A stretch of 62,961 bases of DNA, filler included, from Dugesia japonica (lineage: Eukaryota): assembly GCA_001938525.1 (NCBI GenBank). It is 6 parts of 6 records of this genome, joined end to end, with 100 filler letters (N's around TTAATTAATTAA, not from the genome) between each part and the next. Parts side by side here need not be neighbours in the genome. Positions count along the whole stretch, not along the records: positions 1 to 13,119 come from MQRL01640162.1; 5 more parts are not named here. The stretch is one strand, 5' to 3'. Within the stretch, counting starts at the first letter, position 1. The number at the start of each line of letters is the position of its first letter. Shown here piece after piece: positions 1 to 38,751 of this stretch. The notes under the pieces were generated by a model. The model made no database searches and had not been told where the DNA came from. It saw nothing but the letters and a program-made list of their open reading frames with translations. Made by a program: the position numbers and the translations under genes.

Positions 1-33
1 TATTATTTATTTATTATAATTATTAAAACAAAC

Positions 34-3000
34 CTCAGAAAACATATTATGGAACCAGCATTCTCTCGGAGTTTCTGGAATCATATTTGTCGCTGCTTGA
101 GTTCTTTCGAGGATAAACACTGCTGCTTGTATGATGGAATTATATTTCAATTTCATAATAATATCTTTGTTCTTTAAACTGTCTTGAGAATCGATTTTAT
201 CGATTTCAGACTGTAATTGATGTGCCTTCTTGTTCAGCTCATCATAACATTGTCCTAATGAAGAAACCCACAATTCATCCCACAGAACAGTAATCCGCCT
301 CAATTCTTTAATGAATACACTCACTTCATCTACTAGCACTTTATTACTATCGACGAGAACTTTTTTAATTTCATGATAAAGTGAATTGTTATTGGAATTT
401 TCATTTATTGATCCAACTAATGTTGGATAGATAATCAATTTACTACAATTATTGCTCGACACTGCCAATCGTTGTAATAATTCCGACATGCACATTCGAA
501 TCGTTTTATCACTGTGTTTTAATCGAGCAAATAACTGTGGAATCACATTTGTCCAAGATCCAGGAGGACTCATTTTTATTTTATTTATTATCGAATCTCG
601 TAAATATCTTGATCGTTTACCGAGCAGAGATAATATTCTCAAATTTGCTGTGGTTTTATTTTTATTACATAGATTATCTTTGCTTTTCACTGGAGTTGCA
701 TCTTTNNNNNNNNNNNNNNNNNNNNNNNNNNNNNNNNNNNNNNNNNNNNNNNNNNNNNNNNNNNNNNNNNNNNNNNNNNNNNNNNNNNNNNNNGCCATTT
801 CAAAGGTTATATCCGGATCAAGAGCTAAAATCGATTGTTTCAGTTCAAGTAGGAATGCTGAATCTTCATAGCAATCACCAAACCAATCGGATTCTGATTT
901 CATTTGCGAAGGACAAAAATTACTTTTCAGTAACAATTCAATGTTTGTGATCATTTCATTGGTAAACCCGTGTTTCTCTAATTTCAATGAAAAATCCACT
1001 GAATCCGAATTGAATCCAACTTCATCGAGAGATCTAGATCTATTCAGACACCATTGTGCAAGTGTCATGAAACTCTTATCACTGTTGTCTTGATTTCGTG
1101 ATTTACTTGCCAAAATTAGTAATTGGCTGCAAATATCAGTTACTGTCGATTGACATGTTTTTTCCATTGATCGATGTTGCGGAGAAACCAAAGGCAATCC
1201 ACTAATCCAGGGAACTTCGGCCAACTCAATTAGAAATTGTAAATTACTCGATATTTTACTGTCGCTACAAATAATACTCGAGAACGCATTTTTATCGTTA
1301 CATAACCACATAAATAGAGTCAACAAAGATTTCGTATTCAATTGACATTTAGAACTGTGTAAAATCGAATCACTTGTTTCGAATAAAAGACTTTCTTTTA
1401 AACTACTAGTTAATAACAAAAGAGCGTCGTTTTTTTTCTCTTTTTCCCATAGTAATTTAACTAATTCTCTTTCGAGTTGCATTTGTATAATCGGAGACTG
1501 GGAATTACTTAGAGAAACTTTTTGCATCATTTCTCGACCGAGAAACGTAGAAAATGAATGAGAAATTAAATTTTGGCATTTTTCAAAGTTGAAATGTTTT
1601 CTATGCCATTGAATGAGATATTTTTCGTTGGAAAACTGTTGCGGTAAATTGTAAGCTTTCTGAATTGTGTTACAGAAACTAATAACCGATAATGGCAGGA
1701 TAGTTGAATAATTTGAGAGATTCTTACAATCGACAATTAGATTTTCGGCGGATTTATTTGCTAATTTGAAAAATTTTAATCGTTCACTAATTAAAATGAT
1801 GTCGGAATTGAAAAAATTACTCGGAAAGTCACAAATCGATTGAATTGATGACAAATTCCCGATGAATTTTTCAGTGTCGGATGCTTTTTCTGGCGAATGA
1901 TCAACGACAGATCTGTACAAAATGTCTTCGCAATGATCAATTACTGATCTATATTTCCAGGTCAACTCATTTTGTCTAAGAGGAACACATTCATCATCTA
2001 AATTTTCATTATCCCATTTCGATAATTTACTAAGGCAAATCAGTCTTTCCCAATTTATACTCGATTTTTGTGCTTCTACCATTTGCGAGTTGGATTTCCA
2101 TAATTGAATCTGTTTTTTCCACAATTCCAATCCATCGATATTATTCAATAATTTATAGCAATCAGCAATTTCTTCCATACACAAAATAAACGAGCTGTGA
2201 CTAGTTGCTTTTCTCGTTAATAATCTCATTTCAGATGATTGCTTTATTCTTTCTGGATCATGGTGGTTTCTTACGTAATTTTCAAACTTCGTTAAAGCTA
2301 ATTCTAATTTCCCTACGGTTTTATCAGCCAATGCCTCTATCCAATCGAATTTACTACCATAAGTTTCTACTGACAACTGACTTAAACCGACAAGACTTTC
2401 CCAATTTCCTAATTTACTGAATGCCATTGATGTCAAAACAATGCAATCTTCTACTTCAGGCACTAAAATTCTCGCGGCAGAACTCGAATGAAAATTATTC
2501 ATATCCAAATGATGTTTGAGAATTTGCATTCCATGCCAAATAACAGTACTCCATTGACCGGAATATTGAGCTAATGCTACTATGAACAACCTCATTTTTA
2601 TAAACCATTCAATACAGACATGCTTATTAGTGACGAAAAACGTTTCTGTGGATTTATTAACAGATGGTAATCCAATACAACAGCCTTCATAGGAATTATA
2701 GAACATTTTCTCTAAAACATCTAGCAAGAGAATCATTAAATTCACTGACAACGACTGATCTTCTGGAGATTTTGTGGTGAATTTAGTCATTAATTTNNNN
2801 NNNNNNNNNNNNNNNNNNNNNNNNNNNNNNNNNNNNNNNNNNNNNNNNNNNNNNNNNNNNNNNNNNNNNNNNNNNNNNNNNNNNNNNNNNNNNNNNNNNN
2901 NNNNNNNNNNNNNNNNNNNNNNNNNNNNNNNNNNNNNNNNNNNNNNNNNNNNNNNNNNNNNNNNNNNNNNNNNNNNNNNNNNNNNNNNNNNNNNNNNNNN

Positions 3001-5523
3001 NNNNNNNNNNNNNNNNNNNNNNNNNNNNNNNAACACATCTTTATTATTGAAACTGCATCTGTCAATACTATCTATAATCCACTGGAAAATTGATTTACTA
3101 AAATCTATAGGAAATTTAAATGATCGTCCAGAGACCGACATCGCTTGAATGGATTTAATCTCTTCACTAAACGATTCCTGAGAGATTGGAGTATCGTTTT
3201 TACTAAGTAAATCAAAGTAAATCTTGAAACATTTACTCCTAATCAAATATGACGANNNNNNNNNNNNNNNNNNNNNNNNNNNNNNNNNNNNNNNNNNNNN
3301 NNNNNNNNNNNNNNNNNNNNNNNNNNNNNNNNNNNNNNNNNNNNNNNNNNNNNNNNNNNNNNNNNNNNNNNNNNNNNNNNNNNNNNNNNNNNNNNNNNNN
3401 NNNNNNNNNNNNNNNNNNNNNNNNNNNNNNNNNNNNNNNNNNNNNNNNNNNNNNNNNNNNNNNNNNNTGTTGTTGTTGTTAAATACTACCGATTTATTTT
3501 CATTCATTGTTTTTTTGAGTAAATCAAACGCGATAGATTTCGATTCAGAATTCAAACTTGAAGTGTTAATCATTAAACAAAGAAATTTTATGAAATCTGG
3601 AATCATTTCGGAACCGAGTTCTATTTTCGATACGGTATTCATGATGAAAATTGCGACCGAAGGAAATTGATGAATAACTGATGATTCTGTGAACAATAAA
3701 TATTTCGTAAATAGAACCGGAATAGATGGAACTAAAATTGAAGTAGGATCATCCCGTAATCGATCGTATAGTAACATTATTAAGTTGATATTGTATTTAA
3801 CAACGGGTTCCGCTTGTAACGGTTCGTAGGATTTCGTTTTAAAAGCATTACTTTGAACCAAACGAACTAGATTTGTACAATTCGATACTTTCATGAGGAT
3901 ATTAAGAGCTAATTCGAGGTCACTCAGTAGAATTTGATAGAATGTAGTCACACATTGAGATTTAGCGATTATATCGACGAGTCGTAGATATTTTTCCAGC
4001 ATTTTATTGTCAGAACAAGAACCGTAAAATATGCACGAATGTATCCAATTAACTGGAGATAGAATCTGTACGACTGTGTTTGGTTCGAGATTAATTTTCA
4101 CTAAGCAAATACTAATCAGATTCAAATAAGAGATTATCAGCTCTCGGTTATAATAATTGGTGTTGCTGCTACCTTCTTGGAGGATATGAGATTGGAGTGG
4201 TACAGATGTTCCGATCACATAACGAAATACACTTTGATAAACCGTTCCAACCGATTCGATTTTGTTCAAAATGAACAGCATGTGAAGAATAACCGTATTT
4301 GATTGTAGAAGAAGATTGTCGAAATCGATTTGTTTGCTGCATATTATTAAACTTTCGACAAATTTTTCAATTATACCAACAATGAAATAATTCGGTAGAA
4401 TTTCAGAGAAATTCTCCGAGAATTCCACATTAAAATTGACTTCGGTAACATCAGATATTTTACTGATACCCGCTGTAACACAAGATAATGCGAAACAGAA
4501 GAATTTGATTTTCATTTTGAGTTCATCGATTTGAGAACGTTCTTTGTCTATACGATGAATTCTAGATAACATCTGACAGTGTGTTAATACGTCTTTTTGG
4601 AGATTTGTCACTGTTTTCTTCAAATTAACCGGATCAGCTATCCAACACTCGTGTAAATCAACACTACGTTCGTACAATGACGCCATAGTTGTCAGATCTG
4701 TGTCCGGGTGAATGCACCACCCAATCATTATGTCGATAACATTGTGGAATCTCTGCACAACACATTCCGGACAATGATTGTAAACTCTGTTCAATATCAT
4801 CAATGACAGATTTAAACATTTCGGAAAACAGAGATTTTCAAAAAAGTATTCCCAACTGTGTAGAAATGTGTCTTTGTTTGATTTTAAGTTATTAATTACG
4901 CCATCAGTTGCAAATTCGATCATTTTCAGGAGCATTTTCAAAATTTGCAATGTGTACTGTTCAATTTGTAAATTCGTCATTTTATCGAATATTCGACACC
5001 AGAAATCAATAACAGCTGCATCACCGCGACGAATATTCAAATGAAGAAGATTCATCATTAATTGGCTAGTTACATTAATGAAATCGTCGGAACTTGCGGA
5101 ATCACAGATGCACAACTCTAAAATATTTATCATTTGATCGGAGAATTTATTCTGTGGAACTATTCCGTCTTGATTATTTATCAATAATAAGATTTCCTTG
5201 GCAACCCCTATTTTCTCTGTGTCACTATCAGATATCGATATTTTTCTAATCAATGGTGCAAGCGCGTTTAGCGGTTCGATTGTTCTTCGCATTTTTTTCA
5301 ATAAATCTTGTCGACGGCGTTTTAATTCGTTGTCATACTCTGTGATGACTTTCGTTTTATTAAGTTTTACTGGTTTTATCTCCTCAATTTCCCGGTCGTG
5401 TAATCTACTCATGATATCATAACCATTACTATCGATTTTTCTATAATTATTAGTGTCAGCCAAATAGGCTTTATTTTGTTCGTCGAGAAACGCTGGATCT
5501 AATATTTCTTTTTGTATGCACAT
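34..5523 (-). CDS. smg1: SMG1 PIKK-family kinase (nonsense-mediated decay), N-terminal ~1830 aa in one giant exon; kinase exons lie beyond the window start
   Basis: SMG1-typical motifs FHNVIDIMIGW, WTNVIPQLFARLKH, ELRRITVLWDELW and PETPRE. The ORF ends at a GAG|GTTTGT donor (GT at 33-32). The true start may be in an upstream exon. Confidence 0.9.
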
Positions 5524-5859
5524 TTGTAAATAGTTCTAAAATTAATATTAAAATGATGAAACGGAGAATTTATTTGATAGAAAAANNNNNNNNNNNNNNN
5601 NNNNNNNNNNNNNNNNNNNNNATTAACCCGTTCCAGGTAGGTCATGTTGCTCTGAATACGTATTTCAATCGGATTATATGCATTAATATGTTGAACAAAA
5701 ACATTTTCTATAATATAAACACATTTACAAACCAAATATTTACTTTTCTCGTTCTCAAATATAGAGAAAATATCATTCGAACATACACGCTATTTATTTA
5801 TAAATCCCATTAATACAGGATTGATTATAAAAGTCGCATTATAAAGATGTTTGATATTG

Positions 5860-6339: not shown

Positions 6340-6837
6340 GTAGAAAGTTTGCTCGTCATAATAGATGACAGCTTGTTCACTAAGTGCAAGAATCGAGTCG
6401 GTTGAGTGCTTCCTCTTCAGGGGACCTTTTGATGGACTGTCAGCACATGCGTAAGGTATTTTTGATGAAAGTTTCCGATTGCAGTGCCAGGACATTTCAA
6501 AAAATATTGAAACTAATTCGGTTATATACTGTGATAGTTGGCGTTCATNNNNNNNNNNNNNNNNNNNNNNNNNNNNNNNNNNNNNNNNNNNNNNNNNNNN
6601 NNNNNNNNNNNNNNNNNNNNNNNNNNNNNNNNNNNNNNNNNNNNNNNNNNNNNNNNNNNTACAAATGACAACATGGAACAGTATGCCAGCTTTCCTTTGG
6701 AGAAATGAGATATCAAAAACAAAGATGTCATGTCATTTCTCATTATATCTCTATTCTATTGTCTGATAACCATAATAAATCTGTTAATTACTATAATTAA
6801 TTTCTATAATTATGCATCCTATTGACGCAATAGTACC
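6340..6837 (+). mobile_element. Merlin (IS1016/IS1595-like) DNA transposon remnant
   Basis: From 6361 reads IDDSLFTKCKNRVG*VLPLQ, then VFLMKVSDCSART and IETNSVIYCDSWRS (Merlin IDES.F.KRK..RGR and SDxW motifs). A candidate right TIR ends ...CAATAGTACC at 6837. Confidence 0.75.
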
Positions 6838-7055
6838 CAATTTCATAATTTTCACAGGAAATATCAAGTGTTTAAAGTTTTTCCCATCTAATTTTTAACA
6901 TAAATTCTAATTTCATTAAATTACCAGTTTAAGTTTAATTTATAAAAGAATTCAACAAATTGATTATTTAGCATAAAACAAAGCAAATTTTTTAATTAAA
7001 TTCATTTAAATATTNTGAAATTCAATATTTATATTTTCAAAGTAGCAAAATTTAC

Positions 7056-7612
7056 CCTATCAATGCCAACCAAAGAAGCCCCATGATGCAATAACTTCTT
7101 TACTGTGTCACGCATATAAGCTTGAAGTGCAAAATAAATAGGTGTTTCTTTAGCCTTCAAACAAATTAAATATTGGCATTAGCTTTAAAGAATTCTACTT
7201 CTGTTTCTACATTAACTTCAGCTCCACCAAGAACTAATAAATTAACTGTGGTCACATGACCATGTTGAGCAGCAAAATGAATCGGACGCCAACCACCCTG
7301 TCAACCCACGTAAAATCCATAGAAAAATTATTAAAATACATACATCAGACATTGAATTAACATCGGCTTTATTATCAATCAACCATTTTACAAGATCCCG
7401 ATTTCCTTGAAATGATGCTTCGATTATTGCATTAGTTTGATAGGTCTAATAATTTAATATTACAATGTTTTGTTCTTGATTATACTTACATTTCTACCAT
7501 CATTCATAGTTGTAAATTTATTTATAAAATCTGGATTACTTTTAAAGATATTAATTATTTCTTTCAAATTTCCGTTTCGAATTGATTCGAACCAAGTATC
7601 TAATAAATCCAT
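7056..7612 (-). CDS. Small ankyrin-repeat protein; exons 7612-7490, 7445-7344, 7297-7199, 7154-7056 (3' end uncertain)
   Basis: Spliced through 44/46/44-nt phase-0 GT-AG introns it reads MDLLDTWFESIRNGNLKEI...|TYQTNAIIEASFQGNRDLVKWLIDNKADVNSMSD|GGWRPIHFAAQHGHVTTVNLLVLGGAEVNVETE|AKETPIYFALQAYMRDTVKKLLHHGASLVGIDR. Not in the ORF track. Confidence 0.88.
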
Positions 7613-8502
7613 TTCTAAATTTATATATTAATTAAATGTAATTTATCATTTTTTTTCAAGATCAGATGAAAAAAGGAATACTATATTCATTGTGAAATAC
7701 GTATTTACCCATATAAACCATATTAATAAAACAAAGGTATTTAACAATTTTAAATAATAACGACTAGTTACCTCTTGTCATAAAAAAGGCTTTATTTAGT
7801 AATAGAGAAACAAATTAATTAAATTGTGAAGTAAATTCAATTATTAATAAAAATATTATATTGATAAAACATAACTTAAATCATGAATCAAATCGTAATG
7901 ATAAAATTAGTCTATAAATTAAAATTTTGATTAAATTTTTTTGTAAAATGAAATTCAATCAGTAGTTTAATAGTAAAATTATTTGTAAAGTTTAGTTGCA
8001 GTTTATTTGTCAAATTAAATTCAATCAATAGTCTAATAGTAAATAATCAAAAAAATATTCATAAGATCTTTTATTAGTTTTAAAAATTAATTATCAAAAT
8101 TAATTTTTACAAAAAGTTGAAAGGTCATATAGGTTAAAAATCATTTAATGAAGAGCCAAAATTTCGAGATTAGTGATTTATTGCAAAAATATTAAAGAAG
8201 ATTTATGGAAAATAAAATTAATAAAATAAATTATTTCGGGAATTCGTTTATAAGCGAGAGTTTCTTCTTTAACATAATCAAGAGTTACGTGATTGAGTTA
8301 TCAGAATGTGTTATCTCAAAAGTGACGCATTTCGATTTCTTTTATGAAATCATAGATTATGGAATCACAAATTGCAACTTTGAAGTCGAATGATAATTTC
8401 CCAGGAATCACTAAAATTATCAGAAATTTGTTTTATTTTAATAAGCTAATCTACAAAATATGTAAATGTGCAATTCTTCTACCAATAATTTGCGGTGCCA
8501 AT

Positions 8503-8602
8503 AAGTCAATTCCTGACGAATACAAAGTTGAAATATCGATTCAATCTCAAAAAATCAATAACAAATATATTTTTGATCGAAGCTTTTATTTTAAATGAAT
8601 TA
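8503..8602 (+). ncRNA. Penelope pLTR fragment with degenerate minimal type-I hammerhead ribozyme
   Basis: AATTC-CTGACGA-A-TACAAAGTT-GAAA-TA-TC-GATTC; same repeat as 61856-61947. Confidence 0.6.
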
Positions 8603-11600
8603 ACTTACTTATTATTATTGTTGAATTGCTTATTGTTTTTAACTCGAAACTTACCAGGAATTGATTGATAGTGTTTGGAATGCAATAATATTTTACTTTG
8701 GATTTATTTTGATTATTTTATATAATTCTGATCTTGAAGTCTATTGTAATTTTATTAATTGTACTATTTTAATAATTACTAAATTTCGTTATTATAATTC
8801 TTTTTATTAAATTGCTGTAAATAAATTTAGTTTTGATAAAATGGTAGCAGCAACAAATACTGACTCTATCACAGGGAGGCTGTTGCCGAAAGTTTTTGGC
8901 AGATGCGATGACCTCAAACAATTTATAAAGTTGTTGGGGTGAAACATACAGTCTGAAAAGGAAGCCAAACGAATAGTCAAAAGGGAAGAATTAACAAAGA
9001 AAAAGGAGTAGAAGGAAAGTCAATCAGGAACAAAGCACCTACGATGAAAAAGAAATAGTACATTCATCAATCAAAGAAATCACAAGGAATTAGTATGAAT
9101 AACCAGTATGGCTAAAGCAGAATAAAATTAAGTAATAAATAAAAAAATTAAAAAATACTGAGAAGATTGGATAAAAGATCTTGGAGGAATTAATTTGGAC
9201 CACATTGATGATGATAATCAAAAATAATTAAGAAAATAATTATAATAAATCAAGGAAATTATGTTTGAAAAAACATTTAATTACCAAAAAATATTAATTA
9301 AGACGGAATTAAAGTAAACTAAAATTAAGCATAAATCCGTTTTTTACGAATAATTTGGCTCCAGATAACCGCAGAGATTCGGAGAAAGAAAGTCTGAGAA
9401 GAAATATTAAGATTTTGTAACCAAAAAACTCTGTCACCATCAGAAAGATCACCACAAGGGTTGGAAAAATGGGCCAATAAGGGTTCAAAAAATAAAAATG
9501 GAACAAAGCCACGAAGATCACTTGGCGTTCCAAAAATAAACGCCAATTAGAGTTCTAAAACTCTATAAAAAATTTTTGAAATTGGCGCAATGACCAATGA
9601 AACGACAGAAATTCGAATAAAAAATAGCTGGCCAATACCAAACAAATCGGGGTGTCACCGTAAATGGTATTTAAACCCACTAGTTTTAGACAGAAACATG
9701 CTCAAAAAACATTCACTTTAACCGTTTAACAGTTGCGTTATAATCGAGAAAATCCAGTATTAATTCTATACGAAATATTGTATCACACTCGGGGAAATTT
9801 ACTATTTAAAGGAAAATATTCCCACAAATCATTTATCAGCACCTATTTGGAAATCGATCTCGAACGACAATAATCAAGTAATTCGGTTTACTACCAACGT
9901 AAAAATAACTGTTTATTGAAAAGAAAAGGAACAATTTGTTCAAAACAGATATTGGCAATTTGGAAACTGATCAAGGAAAAAAACTCGCAATTAAACCGAA
10001 ACCCGTTGCAGAAAATACTCTCATTAAAATAAAATATTTTTCTTTGTTTCTATTCACTGTATTATGTGTGAAATATATATTTAAACTGTTAACAAATATA
10101 ACTTTCAAATTATTATAGTTAAATTATTAAGTTAGAAATTGAAAAGGCGAATAATGAAACTTTATTTATCATATAACCATAAAAAACAATTTTACAAATT
10201 ACCCAGATATGACTTATAACTGCGGAATCTGTTTTTCCGTAATACTATTACAACTATCGGTGACCTATGCCACAAATAACTCTTTTCGCTGTTATTTATG
10301 ACTGCATGTAAATCCNATGGTCCTGAGTTTAGCATCCACATCGAATATGGGAAATTTCTTCACCGAGAAGCTTAAGCATGCTTACGTTTCACTGCTATTA
10401 AGAAAATCATGCTGATAGTCTTAAAAGGGCATGATAAATCCGTAGAAAAAATTCCATTTGAGGATTCGACAGGAATGAAATCTAAATTTCCACCAACTTA
10501 GTTAATTATCAATCGACAATCAGATATTAATTGCTTCTGAAAATCATCCGTTAAAACAGCATTACATCATCCCTCTGTAATTTATGAGTTACTATTGACC
10601 GTATCACTGAGTCACTAAAAAACATTTCACTCCTTCGCTAAAGAAATATGCCACGGTGTCTGCCATATTGTAGCAACCTGATGACTCATTCTCGCCAACC
10701 AGCATGCATCAACACTAGCCAGTTTTACGCTCCTAGTACACAATAGTAATTTCATTGATGACTAAAGGAGATTAAGTGGTAACGATCTAAGTATGGAATT
10801 CCTGGCAGTGTACACACATAGATTGTTAAATTTAAATAGCGTTAAATATTATAACTGCAAAGTAAATAACTCCAATTCAACTTTGATTTCGTGTTGTTAT
10901 CAATCGTCATGCCGATATTGTTGGTGTCAATATTAATTAGTTATTAGGTTTACTGATCTTCTAATTATCTTGCTNGGTATCACATTTATCACCGTCGCTA
11001 TTGCCTGATACTTTCATTATCAATAATGTAGCACGAATATTAGTATTATTGCGGTCAATTTTATGACTATTGTTACTAATATTGTTAATATTACTATTAT
11101 TATTAATATTGATATCATTATTTCATTATTATTAGTATTAGCACTATGCATACTATTGTTATGATTATTTCTAATATTTTATGATTAAAATTAGATTCTG
11201 ATTAATAACGTTAACCTCACAAGAATTGGGCTTTCTGTTAGTCACTAGCATTATCATCCCGGTCAGTATTATAATAAAGGATGTTAATTTCACGATGACG
11301 TTAGATTTATTTTTGTTCTGGGTCATTGAAATTTAAATTTTCGGGTAATCAGGGTGTACTGTTAAAAGAAGGAAGGAATCATAAATTTGGTTATCAAAAC
11401 CCACTTGATTGGTTAGGCACACTCCGCTCCGTTTAGTCTATTAGTAATAATTATATTCTGAATACTGACGTCTGCAGGGCAGTCCATAACTGAATTCTGG
11501 TTATATTTTAAGGTAGCATAAGTTAATTTCTCGGTAACCCAGATCCAACTAGTGTGATTGAATTCAGTATTGGCGATTTTTTTTGTCGAGAACTCCGGCA

Positions 11601-11752
11601 GTTCCCATCACTACCCACCTAGGGATATATAGGGAACGGTTCAACTACAACGCCTGGATAAGTGCATAATGATTTTGCATTCAAGAGTGGTGGTATGAAA
11701 AAATTAGATTCTTTCCTTCGCAACTACAAATAAACCTTATTATATTTAGACC

Positions 11753-11935
11753 ATGATGTCAGAATTGAAAAATGCCCTTCACACCATTCGTAAACGACGC
11801 AAGACTGCCCGTCTTAAACAGTTACTCGCCCATCTTTTATCGCGACGCAGGATCGAACATCCCGATGAGACGCACTTGTGTCGTTTCGTCGAGATGTTCT
11901 CTCTGTATAATCCTGTAGACCTCAACGAAGAATGA
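11753..11935 (+). CDS. LTR-cassette ORF1, 60-aa basic helical protein
   Basis: Homologous to 45889-46071 (TIRK.R...RLKQL..H...R.R.EHPDET.L..FVEMF); preceded by a TTTAG acceptor. Confidence 0.75.
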   Translation: MMSELKNALHTIRKRRKTARLKQLLAHLLSRRRIEHPDETHLCRFVEMFSLYNPVDLNEE

Positions 11936-12125
11936 TAGCAATAAGTGAGTATAGAAACACTGGATTTTGATTACTTTTGTTTATAATAAATGTGTTAGAA
12001 TAGTTAATCCATTTACTAACTCTTAAAATCCTTTTTCGTGCTAGTAAAAAATAGTTAAACAAGAACTTTCGAGTTCTTTTTCGTAATAAATTAAACATGT
12101 TTTGAAAAGTAATGTTTTATTCTAG

Positions 12126-12484
12126 TGCACTCTTTACTAAATAGATCGCAGGCCCCGACCAAGAAAGTCCGTGAGTCCAGCAAGAACTTAGAGATGACCT
12201 ACGACGTTTACAAACTCGCTAAACGTCGCTGGGAAGCCGATACTGCAAACGCCAATATCAAGGTGAAAAGGTACAAATATAAGTGTATGGCTTTTAAAAA
12301 TGAAGCCGAAGCATCCCACACACAAGATAGAGTATGGAAAGCTCAAATAAAGACATTCACAGAGATTATTCGGTCCTACCAAGACCGCGAGAATAAACTG
12401 GTCCGGGATATCTTGAAATTGAAAACAGCGATGCCCCTCGAATCATTAATGGTCGATAAGGGTACACAAACGGCACGCCCGTGA
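12126..12484 (+). CDS. LTR-cassette ORF2, coiled-coil protein with C-terminal DKGTQT (LC8 motif); exon lacking its own ATG
   Basis: Homologous to 46858-47197 (PTKK.RE.S...E.T.D.YKLAKRRWE...KVKRYK...EIIRS..D.ENKLV.DIL...LM.DKG); begins at TTCTAG|TG. Confidence 0.75.
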
Positions 12485-12611
12485 ACTCATTTATCTATAA
12501 TTTTATCTTAATAAACTTGTTTATATTCTTAACTAAATTTCTTGGTGTTATTGAGTATCGAAAGGATTATTATGATTAGGTGGTAGTAAAAGTTAATAAC
12601 TTCTTGTTTAG

Positions 12612-12973
12612 TGCCCCGGATCCAACTTCCAACTAACCTAAAACGGTGCCATCGGCTGATACAGAAACTATTATTCGAGCGCCATCTCAAAAGACAAAAT
12701 GAGAGGGCTCTGTTAAAACAACTCTCTCAACGTAACAAACTAATTAAAAAACAAGACATGATTGTGAAAAAGCAAAACGACGTAAATGAACAAACAAAGC
12801 AGCTCTTACAACACAAAGTGGAATTTTTGAAGCGGTATATCGTGGACCTATCGCGACAACTTGGTAACGCAGCATGGGTTCATTGGAACGACAATGATGA
12901 TGAGGCTGCCTTTAATTTTTTTGATATTGATCCGACCCAGTGGTTAGAACCGGGCGCTTTAGATTTGTTGTAA
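12612..12973 (+). CDS. LTR-cassette ORF3, coiled coil plus acidic/aromatic tail; exon lacking its own ATG
   Basis: Homologous to 47321-47703 (EFLK.YI.DLSRQ.GN, AAFNF, QWL.PGALDLL*); begins at GTTTAG|TG. Confidence 0.75.
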
Positions 12974-13119
12974 ATTTTAAGCATTAATAAACTTTAGTCT
13001 CCATACTTTGTTAATTTTGAATAAGGGAAAATAAGGAACCTGAAGTAAAGGTGCACGAGTGAGAACCTCCCGTAAAGGTCGAAGGTCAACCGCTCTGTAC
13101 CGAAAATCTTACTTAGGGG

Positions 13120-13219
13120 NNNNNNNNNNNNNNNNNNNNNNNNNNNNNNNNNNNNNNNNNNNNTTAATTAATTAANNNNNNNNNNNNNNNNNNNNNNNNN
13201 NNNNNNNNNNNNNNNNNNN
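13120..13219. other. Artificial contig-joining linker
   Basis: N44-TTAATTAATTAA-N44 (stops in six frames). Confidence 0.97.
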
Positions 13220-13769
13220 AAAACTGTGTAAATTTCTTAATTTTTATGCAAGTAAATAATTTTGATGAAACAATTTTTTATTTAAAATTTTTCACCAGCA
13301 AGATCGAAATTGCTGTTCTTATATTTTATAAATTGTTCAATATTTCGGTCATGCTTTCTTCACGAATCATTTTTCAATAAATTTTGTTAAAATTTTTCAA
13401 ATGCAAACACAATTTTCAGAAATCTTATTTTTATTAGTTAGTAATTATAACATTAAATTTATTGAACCTATTCTTTGTTGTTTCTTACATGCAAGTTTAT
13501 TATTTTTTTCCATTTTCTATTTACATTTGAAGTTTCTTGCCAAAGCTTTTTGATAGTTTTTTAAACTCGCTAAACTTTTTCTTTACCTATTTCTTCTATA
13601 TTTGCAACCTCTTTGATTGCATCTTCGTCACTGAATTCTTCTTTGTTTATTTCTTGCTCTTTACAGTTTGTTTAATTCTTGCTCTTTTTAACCTTTCCTT
13701 TTAGAATAATTCTCGATTTTTGAACCGTTATTCACCTTATTAACTAAAGCTTTTTTTAAATTCAGACAT

Positions 13770-14407
13770 TTTATAATCAAATTATTTCGCCAATTGTTTA
13801 TATACTGTGATCCCATTTTAATGGAAAATATCAGTTCGTACCCTAAATTCATATGGACATTGTTGTCTAGAGTAAAAATAATACACCCTTGATAATTTTT
13901 TGTTGCATCCTTGAATGAATCCATAAGAAATTTTATATTATTAGGATAATTATGTCTTGTTTGAAAATTAACAATTGTTTTACCCTATAAAATTTTAAAT
14001 AGAACTAAGTATTGTACATTTAAATTTTGTGTTCTATGGCCTCCTTGATGATATAGATTTTGAGTAATGAATATCACAGTCACATTACAAGAAATTGATA
14101 TCTTTGTGAATAAATTGTTTAAGTCCTTTACTTAGTTTGCATCCTGATACAGATAATCAACAATCACATCACATTTACTTAATTTCATTCTCCAATTACC
14201 ATCAAAACCATTTATAACTGTCATTTTTATATTATAAAATTCTAATTGTGTCAATCCAAACTCTTTATATGCATCTCTATTGCAATATATTTTGTTGAAT
14301 TTCGATTTAAGTAAATTTGATTTCAAAAATTTGCATATAAACAGAAATTTTACTTTACCACTAAAACCGAAAATTTAATATATAGCATCATTTCTTAATT
14401 TTTCCAT
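13770..14407 (-). pseudogene. Polinton/Maverick A32-like packaging ATPase, decayed
   Basis: Degenerate Walker A (IFGFSGK), Walker B (CDVIVDYL) and LFTKISISCNVTVIFITQNLYHQGGHRTQNLNVQYLVLFK, typical of Polinton ATPases; contains stops. Confidence 0.8.
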
Positions 14408-14510: not shown

Positions 14511-15159
14511 GTACTATTACCTTGTTTATATTATTTAGACACAATATTTACAACAAAACACATAAATATTTGAAAGCTATTAATAATGATTACCAATATC
14601 ATTTACAAAGGAAAGGTATCACAAGAAATAGTAGGCAAAGAAAGTTTTTAATTGATAAACCGTCACAAATCGTTAATAAAAGTAGAAAGTATACAATTAT
14701 TCTTTTAAATCAAGAAATTTTAGAATCATAGGTTTCAAGAAACAAAACGAAATGAACCATTTACAGTATAAGGATTAAAAAGACATTTGTTTTTTGTATG
14801 ACATCGAGTACAGCACTTGAATTTAGCATATTATGTGCATTTTCAATTCGTTTTTCGTTTAAATCATGATATACCTTCGCAATATTTTTGATAATCGAAT
14901 TATCACAAGAAACAAATAGCTCTCATGATATACAGATCTCACAAACGAAAGTTATATTCATTTAGTAATTATTAATATCAACCTTTATTATTTCTTTGTT
15001 AAGACATTGTTGAATAATTAAGATAATTTTATTTAGAAAAATCAATAAATATACTTGTTATTATTACTTAATTTACTTAATCTGCTTAATCTTTATTATG
15101 ATAACTGTCATTTTGAAATAATCTTTCTATTGAACATCTCTCTTATGAAGTCATAACTA

Positions 15160-15252
15160 TTTAAAATAAAAGCTTCGATCAAAATTTGGTTTTTCTTGGT
15201 TTTTTGAGATTAATTTGATATTTCGACTTAGTTTTCGTCAGGAATTGACTTT
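15160..15252 (-). ncRNA. Penelope pLTR fragment with hammerhead motif
   Basis: Minus strand reads AAGTCAATTC-CTGACGA-AAACTAAGTC-GAAA-TATC-AAATT. Confidence 0.6.
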
Positions 15253-15754
15253 TTAATTTATTCAAGATTTATGTTTATAATGGTAACATTTTTTGAATAA
15301 ATTTTTGTAATTAATTTTAATTGGTTAATTTTAATTCTTATTTACATTTAATTATTTAATTTAATTATTGTAAATTATTTATTTTAGGATAGTCTTCTTT
15401 GATTAGTATTTCTTCATGTTTTTTACCTATGTAATGTAGAAATGTAGCCTGTTCCTAGTGTTTTCCATGTTATGTGATGTTGTTCTTTGTTTGTATTAAA
15501 AGTGTTTGAAGACTTTGCCTTCTTTCAGAACCCTCCGGAACAAGAATTAAGGACTATGTAACACAAAAAGAAAGCGAAGTCTTAGGCTTATACAAGTCTC
15601 ATAGTACCAACCGCTACTGAAGTTAGCCAACTAATTCGTCACCGAGATTATTTAATGCGCCTCTACAAGCGACATGCAAGTCACGAAGGCAATGAACGGT
15701 ATCGCCTTCAGCTGGTCAAGACGACAAATTTTTACTGGTTGTTCCAAACCTAAG

Positions 15755-24417: not shown

Positions 24418-27400
24418 ATGGTTAGTAATCAGTTGATTTGTAAAAAGGTTTTTAAAAATAAATCAGGATTAGCAGATCATATTGGATCAAGATGTTGTCT
24501 TTTAGACAGAACAAGATTTAATTGTTCAAAATGTCTAAAAACGTTCAGAACTATGAGGGAATTGACCGAACATTTGAATTCTACTGATTGTGGAAATTTA
24601 AAGAAGGTTCCGTTGTTTTGTGAAGTTTGTTATGAAAAGTTTTCAAGACAAACTCATGCAAAAGCCCATTTTAATTCAAAATCACATAAAAAAATGGTCA
24701 ACAAAGTATTTTTTGAAGACTTACCTAGAGAAGAAGTAATTGATTTCAATCCAGAAATTTGAGACATCTTCAGAATGTACCAAAAAATCTATGAAATCGA
24801 ATATTTTAAAGAAAGTAAAGTTGAATTAACTATAAATGTTAAAAGTTTAGAAATACCAGTAAAAATGATTAATGAATTTCAGAAAGAAATCCAAGAAATT
24901 ATTACAAAGTATTTCAACTATGAAAAAAAGATTATTGTCCGAATCAGTGTAAATTGTAATTATAATAAAGATGTTAACGGTGAAGAAGACGAAAAAATTT
25001 TTAATTCGTATTCAAGTAATAAACAAATTACATTAACAAGTGAAATTAATGATAAAGTTAATAATATTTTAAATCACCTTCAAACATAAATTGAAGATGA
25101 AGATAGACGTTAATCAGGATGGAATCTAAATTATATAGTTGATCATAAAATTGAACTTTCAAAATATCAATCTATAGCTGGAGGGAAATCATCTTATCAA
25201 AAATTATCTTTTTCTAAACAAGGTGTCATTAATATTAAAAATAAAGATGAAAAATGTTTTTCCTATTGAATTTTAGCCCATAAACATTTATGTATTGATC
25301 CAACTAGAATAGAAAAATATATTCCTTATTTAGATGAATTAAATACTATTGGAATTAAATTCCCTGTTCATATTTGTTATGTAAAAAAATTGAAAAGTTA
25401 AATGAATGGAAAATAAATTTATTTGTTGTAACCGAGTTTAAACAACTTGAACCTTTGTATATTTCGCATTATGAAACTAAACCCAAACCAAAAGAAAATA
25501 AATGTAATTTATTAGTTTATAAAAAACAATTATATTTTATGCGGATATAAAAGTGTTTTATACAAAAAATAGAAATAAAAATCATTTGTGTATTAGATGT
25601 ATGAATTGTTATTATAGCAAAGACTTATTAATTAATCATCAAAAAGAATGTATTAATCATGAAATTAGTAATGTAGTTTTTTCTAAATATCAGAACTATT
25701 ATTACAAAAATAAAATACTTTTTTTAATTTATGGAGACTTTGAATGTTGGACTAATTCATCAACTAAAAAACAAAAACCACTTTCCATTGGTATTTATAT
25801 AGTAAGTAAATATCAAACTTTAATTCGAAATTAATACAAAGAATTTTATGGAGAAAACATTCATCAAGATTTCTTTGAATTTTTAAATGGACTTATTAAC
25901 AAATTAAAAGACAAAAGAAAATAAATTAATTGAAACTTATATTGGAACTAACCATCCAGAATTTACTAATCAAAATTGTAGATATTGTGATCAAGAAATG
26001 GGATTTGAAACTCCAGTAATTGATCACGATCATTCCAATGGTGAATTTAGAGGTTATTCACATTCTAAATGTAATTTACAAGATAAATCGATAAAAAATT
26101 TATTTATTTCTTTTTACTTTCACAATGCATATGGATATGATATTCATTTATTTTTTAAAGAAGTAATTATAAAATATACAAAAGAAGTTAGAAAAAAATT
26201 CCTCATAGTGATGAAGTTTACATTTCCTTTGAACTTGTAAAACCTAAAGAACCCTCAATTATATTTATAGATTCATTAAGAATGTGTACTCTTACTTCAA
26301 TTGAAAAAGTGGGAGAAACGTAAAATCAATCAGGAAAATATAATAATTTAAAATTTTTTAATTTAGCTCCGAAGAAAATTTCATTTCCTTTTGTATATGT
26401 AAAAGTAGAAAATATAAATGAAGTAATTGAATTATTAAAAAGAAACCATCCACCAACAGAACAAGATTTTTTCAATATATTAAGACAAAACAAAATAACT
26501 GATCATTAATACAATGAATTTTTACAAGATTTTATACAATTCAATAATCTTTGGGAATACATGTTACATTACATGAAAATAGATGTAATTATTTTAGCTG
26601 ATAAATTTGAAAATTTTAGAGAAACATGTTTAAATAATTATCAAATTGATCCAAATTATTGTTATTCAGCTCCGGGTCTAAATTGGAATGCAGGTGTGAA
26701 ATTTACTCAAGTAAAATTAAAATATGCTCAGAAAAAAACTTATGATAGATTTATTAAAATTGAAAGATGAGTTAGAGGTGGTTATTCTGGTGTTTGTGGA
26801 GAAAGACAAGTTTTTGGAAATAGTAAAAGAAATGATAAAAAAATAAATAATGCTCAATTAGATGATTTATTAAATATATTTACAAATCCTGAACAATATC
26901 TTCCAGATGATTATTTTGAAGAAACATTTTTAAATATTTAGATGAGAATTCTTTGTATGCTAGTTGTATGACAAAAGCATTACCAACTGGTGACATCTAT
27001 GAATGTAAGGATTTAAAATATATTAAATTAACAGATAAAATTAATTATGTTTATGAAGTTGATTTAGAATATCTAAAAAAGATTCATGAAAAGACTAAAT
27101 ACTTTCCATTAGCACCAGATCCTTTAAATATTACAAAAGAAATGTAAGCACCTTATCAATTATCTTTTGATAAAAAGTTGAGTAAGAAAAATATTAAATT
27201 AACATTGAATCAATTTCATAAACAAAATTATATTATTTTAGGATCAACATTCCATTTGTATATTTCTTTAGGAATGAAAATATTATAAATACATTCTAAA
27301 TATAAAATGACTACAAAACCTTAGTTAAAGGATTAGATTCAATTTAATATCAATCAGAGAAATGAAGCTAAAAGAACAAACGATGTTTTTGGTGATGTCT

Positions 27401-36263: not shown

Positions 36264-38751
36264 TATAATCATCATCATCATTAAAAAAAGTTTAGTAATT
36301 ATAACAATTTTGAGAATTCCATACAAACATGGTGTTCTGCGTGGAACAAACCATCAAATGCTATTTAAAATATCATTTGTCTTTTTGGTAATATCTGATT
36401 TTTCTTCTACACTTTGTTTGGAATAATTGTTTTGCCAAATATCTTTTTTTTTAATTAATTTTAAAATTTACGTCATTTGAAAGAAGGTAGAGCACCAATA
36501 ATGTGAAAATACCAAATTTTAGCAGAATGTGTGATGTTGGAATTGGTACATTCTTGATTAATTTATTTGCTCAGTATTTCCTTATACCAATTTTTAACAG
36601 AGTTTTATTTATTTCCTCTGAAATTGATACGAGAGATTCAAATATACACGTGAATATTTCAGCATAATAATGAGTTATTGCTGCTTGTATCTTATTTTTA
36701 AAATTCTCATATTTAATCAAGTTGCTTTCATTAACACATTCGCTGCCACACACAATTTTATATTTTTACCTGCAACCAACATCGAATATAAATATTAATT
36801 TTTGAAATAAATATCAGATTTATCTAAAATAAAAGCTTCGATCAAAATTTCTGTTTTTTTTTTGGTTTTTTATAATAATTTTATATTTTAACTTTGTCTT
36901 CTTCAGGAATTGATTTTTTTTAATTCAATTCCTGAAGAAGACAAAGTTAAAATATAAAATTATTATCAAAAACCAAAAAACAACAAAAATTTTGATCGAA
37001 GCTTTTATTGTAAATGAATTCTTTAAAACGATCAATGGTTTTGCCAACAATTATTGCAATTGTAAAAATATCAAATATTTTTAACTAACAGTCTCATATA
37101 TGACTACAAAAATAATAATCTTTTTACGAGTTATCTCGTAGTTGGCAGAGAACGTGGTAATCAATTGAAAATTCTTTTCCAAATCTAATAGACATTTGAT
37201 ATCTTATAGGAGGATTGCTTTTTCATCGTTTGTATTACTCAAGTCTATATGTTCTTTAGAGTTATTGAAAAATAAGTAAGCTTAGTAATTTCAATGATCA
37301 AGTTTGGAGATTTGAGGTAATATACAAAGGTTTTTAGACATGCATTATGTCTTTCAGTTGTTAAACTTTGATTAAATTTAAAACTTTGAAGAACATGAGA
37401 CACAGTTTCCTCTGCATCAAGACGACTGATAAATGATAAATGAACGAGCAAATATATTCAAGTTATTTAAACGAGCCTCGTGAATAAAGTTCAATTAAAA
37501 TTCATTAAGTTTGCCTTTATATATAAATTTGTAGATAATTGTAATATTGTCAATAATATTAGCGAGTTCTTATCAAAATGTTGCTTTCAGAAGATTTATA
37601 CCCGGTAAATTGTTTATTATACGTAATGTCATTTCTTGATCAATTATTTCAAATGATATCGAAGTATTGTAAATTTTCCTCAAATATTCCAGAGCATTTC
37701 TCAGACGTTAAAATTTAGTCTTTTTTGATTTTGAGTTGGAATTTGTTTGCACATCATTAATCGGTTGGAAGCATTCTTACATTATTGGATTAGACTTGTT
37801 AATATCAGTACTTACTACAAAACAGAGTGAATCTTACTTTATTTTTCTAGTGTATTAAAATATCGAAGTTACAAGTCTGAAATATTGAATCATGTTTTGA
37901 ATGTGATATTCATCAAGCGTGTCAGTACAGGCTTTCCACCATTTTATGTAGAATTATAGAAGTAAAATGTTTCTGACTGATAAGGAAGGTAAAATATCTA
38001 TCTAATAACATTGTGCAATAATCAAGCATAAATATTACAAGAATAATAAATTATTTATTTCATTTTAGAACAACTTCAAAATTATTTCATTATTTGCAGG
38101 TTCAAAGAAGCCAAATTTGTTGTTGAAACTTTCACAGTTGATCCGGCCTATTTGAAACATAAACACGAAGGTAAATGTCCTGATTTCCGAGTATGTTTTG
38201 CAGAATTTACTAATTCATTCTAAATGTTTGTTAGCATTGGCATATACAACTTGGTCGAAGATTTCGATCCTTGAAAATCTGGTTTGTGTTGCGTTTATAT
38301 GGAGTCAAGGGTATCCAAAAATATATTCGAAATGTAAATTATTAACATTATTGAAGAATCTTTAACTGATATCTTTAATAATAGCACATAGAGTTGGCGC
38401 ATTTGTTTGAAAGATTAATTTCCAGAGATGATCGGTTTGAAATTGTTGAAGAAGTCACGATGGGATTGGTTTGTTTTCNNTTGAAGGTAAAATACTTGAC
38501 TTTTTAACAAATAATGCATGTAATGTTTCTAGGGTAACAATGAGATTAATAATGATCTTTACAAGAGAATTGAAGCTGATGGTCGAATTCACTTAGTAAC
38601 ATCGGTATTCTGTGACACTGATATTGTTTATCTGAGATTCGCAGTGTGCTATCAATTCGCTACAAAAGATCACGTTAAATTTGCTTATGATACGATCATT
38701 GATGTAACAGATAAAATGAACTTGTCTATTAGCGCTCAATCAAAGAAATAG
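33165..38751 (+). CDS. ddc: Aromatic-L-amino-acid (DOPA) decarboxylase-like, 3' exons 33165-33232, 38100-38190, 38235-38333, 38385-38486, 38533-38751
   Basis: [23 protein letters not shown] (PLP lysine), [51 protein letters not shown]. All junctions are GT-AG and frame-consistent. Other group II decarboxylase paralogs are not fully excluded. Confidence 0.9.
33415..33525. repeat. Inverted repeat of the pLTR tail (no hammerhead core)
   Basis: AAAAGCTTCGATCAAAATAAAATCTATTTGTAAAGAAATT / AATTTCTTTACAAATAGATTTTATTTTGATCGATGCTTTT. Confidence 0.75.
33980..35880 (+). mobile_element. Penelope-like retroelement remnant (RT + GIY-YIG) in the ddc intron
   Basis: [56 protein letters not shown] and EALMIRL; interrupted after YIGE at 35491. 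Confidence 0.88.
36218..36263. repeat. (AAT)n microsatellite
   Basis: Direct reading. Confidence 0.95.
36300..37800 (-). mobile_element. Very decayed Gypsy-type pol remnant (RT/RNaseH/integrase)
   Basis: Minus-strand vestiges [23 protein letters not shown] and YGIL in pol order; weak. Confidence 0.35.
36815..37075. repeat. Divergent inverted pair of Penelope pLTRs with mutated hammerheads
   Basis: TCAATTCCTGAAGAAGACAAAGTTAAAATATAAAATT on both strands around 36915-36925. Confidence 0.8.

Follow-up and report, generated by a model that had tools for sequence, protein, structure and literature searches.

Two small genes in a repeated three-gene cassette of Dugesia japonica probably obtain their start codons at a splice junction

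Introduction

In insect errantiviruses of the springer subclade, the start codon of env is completed by splicing to an AU leader, and the env genes of ZAM, Beagle, and idefix are described as receiving coding peptide leaders (bioRxiv 10.1101/2023.08.03.551782). Bocaparvoviruses, erythroparvoviruses, and amdoparvoviruses make their proteins from one promoter via alternative acceptors and internal polyadenylation, according to the sections of PMC12298888 drawn on here. MDG1-group LTR retrotransposons carry the accessory genes sORF1 and sORF2, whose isoforms are set by poly(A) choice, and sORF1 is reported there as nuclear (bioRxiv 10.1101/2025.03.14.642691). In the spliced-leader operons of flatworms, the leader ends in AUG, and same-strand genes lie at most 300 bp apart (PMC12582326). 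Giant elements with accessory ORFs, Terminon included, have also been reviewed (PMC6431247).

Here, we analyzed a 62,961-nt stretch of Dugesia japonica DNA (the window), in which a cassette of three small ORFs is present in two copies, A and B. Like springer env, ORF2 and ORF3 of the cassette are start-less 3′ ORFs that would receive part of their ATG from a spliced leader. The springer leader, as outlined in that preprint, gives AU to env alone and the acceptor supplies G, whereas the cassette acceptors present TG in phase 1, and two unrelated small genes would each receive a single A from the cassette leader. For neither copy did the ORFs or the six frames upstream of them match F-type Env or pol in Pfam, and no LTR pair was found. 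As to the parvoviruses, the donor of MVC lies 6 nt past the start site (PMC12298888), similar to the very short leader that the candidate donor at 11662 would give if the TATA-like word upstream of it is used. NS1/Rep and capsid genes are absent from the cassette, and junction-made starts are not described for these viruses in the sections of PMC12298888 drawn on here. The small ORFs, with isoforms that would be set by poly(A) choice, resemble those of the MDG1 group. There, they are accessory to a retroelement, sORF2 is a membrane fusogen-like protein, and acceptor-led start-less ORFs are not among the features covered by the available part of the preprint (bioRxiv 10.1101/2025.03.14.642691). 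The flatworm operons share with the cassette a short same-strand spacing, a poly(A) signal followed by an acceptor, and a leader that can supply the start (PMC12582326). The ORF1–ORF2 and ORF2–ORF3 gaps of copy A, 190 and 127 nt, fall within their 300-bp limit, but the flatworm leader, as described, gives a whole ATG in phase 0 (PMC12582326), and this ATG would not be in the reading frame of ORF2 or ORF3, where phase 0 stays open over 4 and 9 codons, respectively, in copy A. The individual parts of the mechanism considered below are each already known. An element with several start-less terminal exons behind one leader was not found in the literature searched, which lay mostly outside subscription journals and outside Repbase.

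Two copies of a three-gene cassette

Copy A of the cassette spans 11753–12973 and copy B 45889–47703, both on the plus strand, and all comparisons below are based on these two full copies. In copy A, ORF1 (11753–11935) has 60 codons, its own ATG, and a basic N-terminal helix. ORF2 (12126–12484) is basic, with 118 codons past the junction, and ORF3 (12612–12973) has 119 codons past the junction and is predicted to form a long helix with an acidic-aromatic tail. In copy B, ORF1 occupies 45889–46071 (45871–46071 with its acceptor) just 3′ of a 21-N gap, ORF2 occupies 46858–47197 (from 46843 with its acceptor) and loses its 3′ end to an N gap, and ORF3 occupies 47321–47703 (47309–47721 with its acceptor and AATAAA). 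An extra ORF of copy B (46248–46607, plus strand) follows a phase-0 acceptor with its AG at 46262, runs for 114 codons from there with its own ATG at +16, and gave no family match. It occupies the site that ORF2 has in copy A, the spacer 3′ of ORF1 being 190 nt in A and 191 nt in B. Copy B is decaying, with two stops in 412 codons, both within ORF3 (47425 and 47614).

All three ORFs are 58–59% identical in amino acid sequence between the copies, with pS values of 0.81–0.93, at which silent sites are saturated, and pN values of 0.27–0.29 (ORF1: 58%, pS 0.92, pN 0.29; ORF2: 59%, pS 0.81, pN 0.27). Identical third codon positions number 19/49, 45/102, 16/59, and 17/53 (27–44% across the cassette). 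The ORFs are real genes under purifying selection.

Relatives of the encoded proteins were sought in several collections. No homolog of ORF1 was found in a search limited to 30–104 aa, none of ORF2 in a protein search limited to 64–207 aa, and none of ORF3 among 1.84 billion sequences. An atlas search gave no named match (the best, at 0.90 and 0.76, are both unnamed), the PDB search gave nothing, Pfam and PHROGs gave only weak matches below the Pfam cut-offs, and a viral fold search with ORF1 gave nothing at E 0.001. The ORF1 model consists of two helices (pLDDT 74.5), and the ORF3 model is a single 86-residue helix followed by the acidic-aromatic tail; ORF3 of copy B carries a 7-residue (heptad-length) insertion within the helix. 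No hydrophobic segment was seen by eye in the cassette ORFs. From the basic, helical character and the acidic tail in the models, we infer that the proteins may be nuclear coiled-coil regulators.

Splice acceptors and a probable A|TG junction

An earlier, sequence-only reading of the window held that each ORF opens right after a pyrimidine tract and an AG. This is borne out by the sequence and by the conservation between copies, and the positions that it gave are all correct: AG|TG at 12126, 12612, and 47321, AG|TT at 46858, GTGAGT at 11945, and AATAAA at 11985, 12510, 12986, and 47716. The acceptor of ORF1 (11735–11749, plus strand; its equivalent in copy B ends at 45885) is in phase 0 with an ATG at +4 in both copies. 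It has 9 and 11 pyrimidines in 12 nt in the two copies, which agree at 8 of the last 10 nt. The acceptors of ORF2 (12111–12125, plus strand) and ORF3 (12597–12611, plus strand) are in phase 1. TG follows that of ORF3 in both copies and that of ORF2 in copy A, and TT follows that of ORF2 in copy B. At all four of these acceptors, the same reading was also right that the phase is always 1 and that no conserved initiator ATG is present. Five of the six compared acceptors have 8–11 pyrimidines in the 12 nt before YAG, and that of ORF3 in copy B has 7 in 9 readable positions; the background of pyrimidine-rich YAG sites is 0.0039 per nt per strand. The last 10 nt ahead of the AG are identical at 7–8 positions between copies, compared with 9/30 further 5′ of ORF2. 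Every compared or long ORF in phase 0 carries its own ATG within 16 nt. The acceptors are very likely real.

The coding signal in ORF2 and ORF3 reaches these sites. Coding-type substitutions are found directly after the AG, with synonymous changes from the second codon of ORF2 on, and in copy A the frames of ORF2 and ORF3 are shut 4 and 7 codons 5′ of the AG. Conservation starts at the pyrimidine tract and AG, 16–60 codons ahead of any in-frame ATG; the first such ATG is codon 24 of ORF2 and codon 50 of ORF3 in copy A, as opposed to codons 61 and 17, respectively, in copy B. Because the coding conservation extends to the AG and the in-frame ATGs differ between the copies, a start codon is needed from elsewhere. 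A phase-0 acceptor at a conserved CAG nine codons into ORF2 was considered and rejected, as the codons ahead of it show coding-type changes.

TG is found at codon positions 2–3 in 8.1% of cassette codons, as opposed to three of the four phase-1 acceptors, and the chance that both ORF2 and ORF3 of copy A open with it is ~0.7%. A constrained ATG is favored over an unconstrained junction codon by a rough likelihood ratio of 10–80, which is sensitive to the decay estimate (1–8% per site). A noncoding leader ending in A fits all seven acceptors, with the TT of ORF2 in copy B as the sole misfit. The start codon of ORF2 and ORF3 is probably made at the junction, as A|TG.

Candidate donors and a putative upstream leader

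As ORF1 has an acceptor too, a donor must lie upstream of ORF1 if splicing is in cis. An ATG-free stretch of 373 nt (11298–11668, plus strand) with a TATA-like word at 11626 precedes ORF1 of copy A and is likely a leader or promoter-proximal. Between 11300 and 11661, ATG is the only one of the 64 trinucleotides that is missing, and a run of this length is reached in 8 of 1000 shuffles of 11200–11749, a window picked after the fact. The preferred candidate donor (11662–11667, plus strand) has a weak GTGCAT after an exon ending in ATAA. It is located 7 nt before the end of the ATG-free run, 36 nt from the TATA-like word, and 88 nt from the ORF1 acceptor. ATAA also precedes the donor at 11945; ATAAGTG occurs nine times in the window, including three times in copy A, once inside ORF2. 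Further ATG-free runs are found at 9701–10063 upstream of copy A (plus strand, 365 nt; A-ending donor candidate at 9878) and at 44022–44430 upstream of copy B (plus strand, 409 nt; donor candidates at 44274 and 44428). Runs as long were seen in 11 and 4 of 1000 shuffles, respectively, in windows chosen after the fact, and the donors are not demonstrably homologous. Three of the nine ATG-free runs of at least 360 nt in the window sit upstream of the two ORF1s on the plus strand (P about 0.003, again after the fact). The region just 5′ of ORF1 in copy B contains nine ATGs and an N gap, and it aligns to copy A at chance level (221/500 shuffles as high); the donor is therefore not confirmable by conservation, and the leader of copy B may lie within the gap.

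A donor at 11662 would imply introns of 464 and 950 nt, far above the 44–46 nt of three introns measured in one host gene, which are spliceosomal GT–AG introns and tolerate weak donors. This gene is a small ankyrin-repeat-like one, recognized by eye, on the minus strand at 7040–7613, with introns of 44, 46, and 44 nt.

A consensus donor, GTGAGT, lies after ORF1 at 11945–11950 (plus strand), where the exon would end in ATAA. It is the best consensus donor within 8800–13119 and one of three AAGTRAGT words in the window; an A-preceded GTRAGT is expected in 0.6% of 50-nt windows. This is the donor of the sequence-only reading, in which joining it to either acceptor would create an ATG overlapping a stop in the ORF1 frame. 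That stop is not the terminator of ORF1: ORF1 of copy A stops at the TGA at 11933–11935, followed by the codons TAG, CAA, and TAA, and thus ends three codons before the TAA concerned. Because translation of ORF1 has already stopped at 11933, the TAA–ATG overlap is incidental rather than a true stop-start overlap. In copy B, ORF1 stops at the aligned TAG. The caution that a donor is not obvious in copy B was justified, as no alignable one exists there. The post-ORF1 spacers of the two copies align no better than chance (180/500 shuffles score as well), and the best candidate of copy B, at 46111, is weak and 40 nt past the stop; such words occur in 17% of 80-nt windows. Homology of 46111 to 11945 was rejected. 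A second perfect GTGAGT is found at 12171, in phase 1 inside ORF2 of copy A. Splicing from it would fuse ORF3 in frame to the first 15 codons of ORF2. It has no counterpart in copy B, which indicates that such hexamers also occur by chance here.

On these sequence grounds, the likeliest donor in copy A would be the candidate at 11662, and 11945 may serve as a second donor; it is probably not the main one. Several other joins were tried and rejected: an ORF2-to-ORF3 join at 12462, where copy B reads GC; a short local intron before ORF2 from the GT at 12083, which has no ATG in frame and no match in copy B; and a short local intron before ORF3 from the GT at 12555, which is changed in a relative present in run X8.

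Putative poly(A) signals and RNA reads

As previously stated for copy A, an AATAAA lies behind each ORF, at 11985–11990, 12510–12515, and 12986–12991 (all plus strand), which is 50, 26, and 13 nt past the three stops. The second is 101 nt ahead of the ORF3 acceptor. A random 60-nt window contains AATAAA 15% of the time. In copy B, only the ORF3 signal (47716, same spacing) is as close as in A; the nearest one after ORF1 is distant, at 46235 (with an ATTAAA at 46151), and the end of ORF2 falls in an N gap.

A run search with the stretch listed 24 runs, eight of which, from four studies, contain all or part of it; none of these is recorded as RNA. Read alignment covered copy A only, in 7 of the 24 runs. 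Four raw RNA runs, sampled at 6–25% each, gave 42, 548, 84, and 80 reads on 6800–13119, mostly in a short repeat near 8500–8600, and the three splice joints among those listed for this region are all in that repeat. No junction reads or contigs into the cassette were found in the seven runs, where no raw read covered an acceptor. In run X10, the raw depth was zero at 12096–12153 and 12444–12907, which include both phase-1 acceptors. Leader-like loose ends at the acceptors were absent among those listed, at a depth near zero. Runs X16 and X20 gave no aligned reads on 11400–13119, which can be a false negative.

When run X10 was aligned to 11400–13119 at 80% likeness, 46 partial reads were obtained, 42 of them <90% alike. 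The poly(A) reads lie mainly on ORF2 (12154–12443) and on the 3′ unit described below. First mates are mainly on the minus strand (9.2 versus 4.1 at 12270–12327; 9.2 versus 1.0 at 13082–13119), so that, in a library of the usual stranded type, these reads would be mainly sense RNA; the small number of ankyrin-gene reads agree, and one to two reads on ORF1 are oriented the opposite way. Translated in frame, the loose ends listed correspond to ORF2 homologs from additional lineages. These diverged ORF2 relatives show that the cassette family is transcribed in one sample or more. Run X8, which is probably DNA, yielded seven pieces, one identical to copy A and six from relatives; pieces 2 and 5 cross acceptors unspliced.

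Proposed mechanism and alternatives

The earlier model of one transcription unit with alternative terminal exons thus stands in part: its acceptors and the A|TG junction fit the sequence, its stop-overlapping donor does not, and no junction reads were found at a depth too low to decide. The mechanism that we propose is as follows. A single promoter 5′ of ORF1 would give one pre-mRNA, in which the noncoding leader would be joined to one of the acceptors and cleavage would follow at the poly(A) signal downstream of the ORF chosen, so that each mRNA would encode a single protein. ORF1 and the extra ORF of copy B, with their own ATG, would not need the last base of the leader. ORF2 and ORF3 would take the A of ATG from that base and would, by this dependence, be untranslatable if unspliced. 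Leaders ending at 11662 or 11945 would both end in ATAA and place an A at −3 of the new ATG. We regard the chances as evenly balanced that such a shared, ATG-free upstream leader, ending in A and spliced in cis to the TG of ORF2 and ORF3, is the main route. The evidence against it comprises the weak sequence of the donor at 11662, the long introns implied, the region upstream of copy B that does not align, the lack of junction reads in the seven runs, and the AG|TT of ORF2 in copy B, which would give ATT, so that decay or a weak start must be assumed.

If this mechanism is correct, splicing would switch on the translation of several genes together, and a plug-in route for adding genes would be open to a compact element. 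Such ORFs would be overlooked or cut short by gene finders, which may explain the absence of homologs among billions of predicted sequences. A broader view, to which we give somewhat less than even weight, is that of an undescribed, modular mobile family, in which the small genes are interchangeable terminal exons behind one A-donating, start-less leader, several unrelated proteins depend on splicing for their production, and new modules, such as the extra ORF of copy B, enter at any acceptor.

Use of 11945 as the main donor is unlikely but has several features in its favor. The A|TG start would then be formed on bicistronic ORF1–ORF2 or ORF1–ORF3 mRNAs and translated by reinitiation, and use of this donor would compete with the poly(A) site of ORF1, 40 nt further 3′. 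Besides its consensus, its A-ending exon, and its rarity, this donor gives the shortest intron to ORF2 (181 nt) and has a stop on its 5′ side and a poly(A) signal on its 3′ side, which is the arrangement of a composite terminal exon. A splice from it would retain the 60-codon ORF1, with its strong start context, upstream of ORF2. Unlike in the UAAUG coupling of CHV1, as far as our source describes it, ORF1 terminates three codons ahead of the TAA. In addition, the donor is not conserved in copy B, where 46111 is weak, and the GTGAGT inside ORF2 shows that the word arises by chance.

Rather improbable is a short coding leader, consisting of an ATG and a phase-1 junction, that is fused to ORF2 and ORF3 in the manner of the ZAM, Beagle, and idefix env peptides, with the TG being coincidental. 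The AG|TT of copy B would then be a silent change, and peptide leaders are found in three of the four errantivirus subclades named in the part of bioRxiv 10.1101/2023.08.03.551782 drawn on here. On the other hand, TG would have appeared twice by chance (the 0.7% given above), the upstream region is ATG-free, and joining such a leader to the ORF1 acceptor would cover the ORF1 start with an out-of-frame ORF of 13 or 37 codons. ORF1 itself was rejected as the coding leader because ORF1 of copy B has no phase-1 GT.

We consider it quite improbable that the three ORFs form an operon whose mRNAs are separated by 3′ cleavage and a trans-spliced leader, which must end in A for ORF2 and ORF3. The gaps, and the AATAAA signals with 140 and 101 nt between them and the following AG, agree with the 300-bp flatworm criterion as given in the available part of PMC12582326. 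Moreover, an ATG-ending leader would be in frame with ORF1 and the extra ORF of copy B, and a conserved cis donor was not found. The flatworm leaders described in that source end in ATG, which does not match the frame of ORF2 or ORF3. The TG of these two ORFs calls for a different ending, and we know of no spliced leader ending in A. Initiation without splicing, in which read-through RNAs or RNAs with starts of their own would be translated from the genomic GTG or from an ATG inside the ORF, has very little going for it: the GTG codon at three of the four sites and the unspliced pieces 2 and 5 of X8, though from a run that is probably DNA, are outweighed by a pyrimidine at −3 in all four contexts, the GTT in copy B, internal ATGs that are not conserved, and the conserved pyrimidine tract and AG that also precede ORF1, which owns an ATG.

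Flanking units and possible mobility

A conserved noncoding 3′ unit follows ORF3. In copy A (13021–13119, plus strand), it is cut by a gap and shows 72% identity to 47767–47857 of copy B, where the full unit extends to about 47957 and is followed by a degenerate (AAT)n tail, a tandem repeat at 47958–48037 (unit and tail together 47767–48037, plus strand). It is predicted to form a nested hairpin in which 21 of 22 cells pair and two pairs are changed on both sides, although with two sequences 143 of 500 shuffles match this; the fold of the unit in copy B has a z-score of −2.2 (5/200 shuffles as good). The X10 relatives seem, by eye, to retain its outer stem and the next hairpin, and a U-rich word between the hairpins in copy B resembles what we take to be an Sm site. 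No Rfam family matched the unit, and no ribozyme family was found at E up to 10 or 5. A hammerhead ribozyme in the terminal unit is a feature of Penelope-like elements and retrozymes; this identification was rejected, as no ribozyme family matched. A role of the unit as a private leader RNA was also rejected, because its conserved GTs follow G and the X10 reads appear to run through. A pattern search with the unit gave no matches in metagenome and viral collections. Piece 6 of X8 (at 13021–13066) has sequence like the end of the copy B unit directly before the unit start, a possible head-to-tail junction suggesting that a unit of ~180–190 bp may occur in tandem or as a circle.

A block common to both copies lies further upstream (9435–9648 in A and 43907–44121 in B, plus strand) and contains three CCAAT words at matching places; the ATG-free runs at 9701–10063 and 44022–44430 come after it. 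Its alignment scores 67.6 bits (0/200 shuffles as high) at 65% identity, compared with 27–44% at the third positions of the cassette. It shows no codon-position pattern (38/35/31 of 53) and no Pfam match in any frame. The block may be a promoter block or what is left of a gag-like gene after decay; by eye, it presumably resembles a decayed gag/protease. No Pfam family was found in the six upstream frames of each copy (12 frames). Three 82-bp direct repeats lie 5′ of copy B (44601–44846) and are absent from copy A.

The cassette is likely a mobile family, in view of the two copies in 63 kb with saturated silent sites, the further lineages, the 3′ unit, the (AAT)n tail, and the possible head-to-tail junction. 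Neither a transposase nor a reverse transcriptase was found, and there was no sign of a pair of terminal repeats, a target duplication, or a second 3′ unit upstream of either cassette, both copies abutting gaps; since no mobility gene or repeat pair was found, we infer mobility from these features. A host gene family is possible.

Surroundings of the cassettes

The window is AT-rich, mostly 20–30% GC. The 100-nt gaps at 13120–13219 and 43768–43867 have a central palindromic linker; they are likely joins, and their flanks may not adjoin. SMG1 is located at 7–5535 on the minus strand, as an open frame of ~5.5 kb with N gaps (PF15785); one relative is 75% identical over 217 residues, and all other matches are 27–41% identical. 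Polinton-like fragments (51223–52909, 25908–26240, and 13600–14400 on the minus strand) include a double jelly-roll protein (PF21738), a PLA2-like protein (PF08398), and an endonuclease VII (PF02945). A broken frame beside copy A, with no Pfam match, is presumably packaging-ATPase-like. A homeobox exon (PF00046), which we take to be goosecoid-like, is found at 61144–61518 on the minus strand. A repeat of ~100 bp has six copies in the window, two as inverted pairs (including 8500–8601, 15159–15254, 36818–37020, and 61743–61946), and it attracts most of the RNA reads in all four raw runs.
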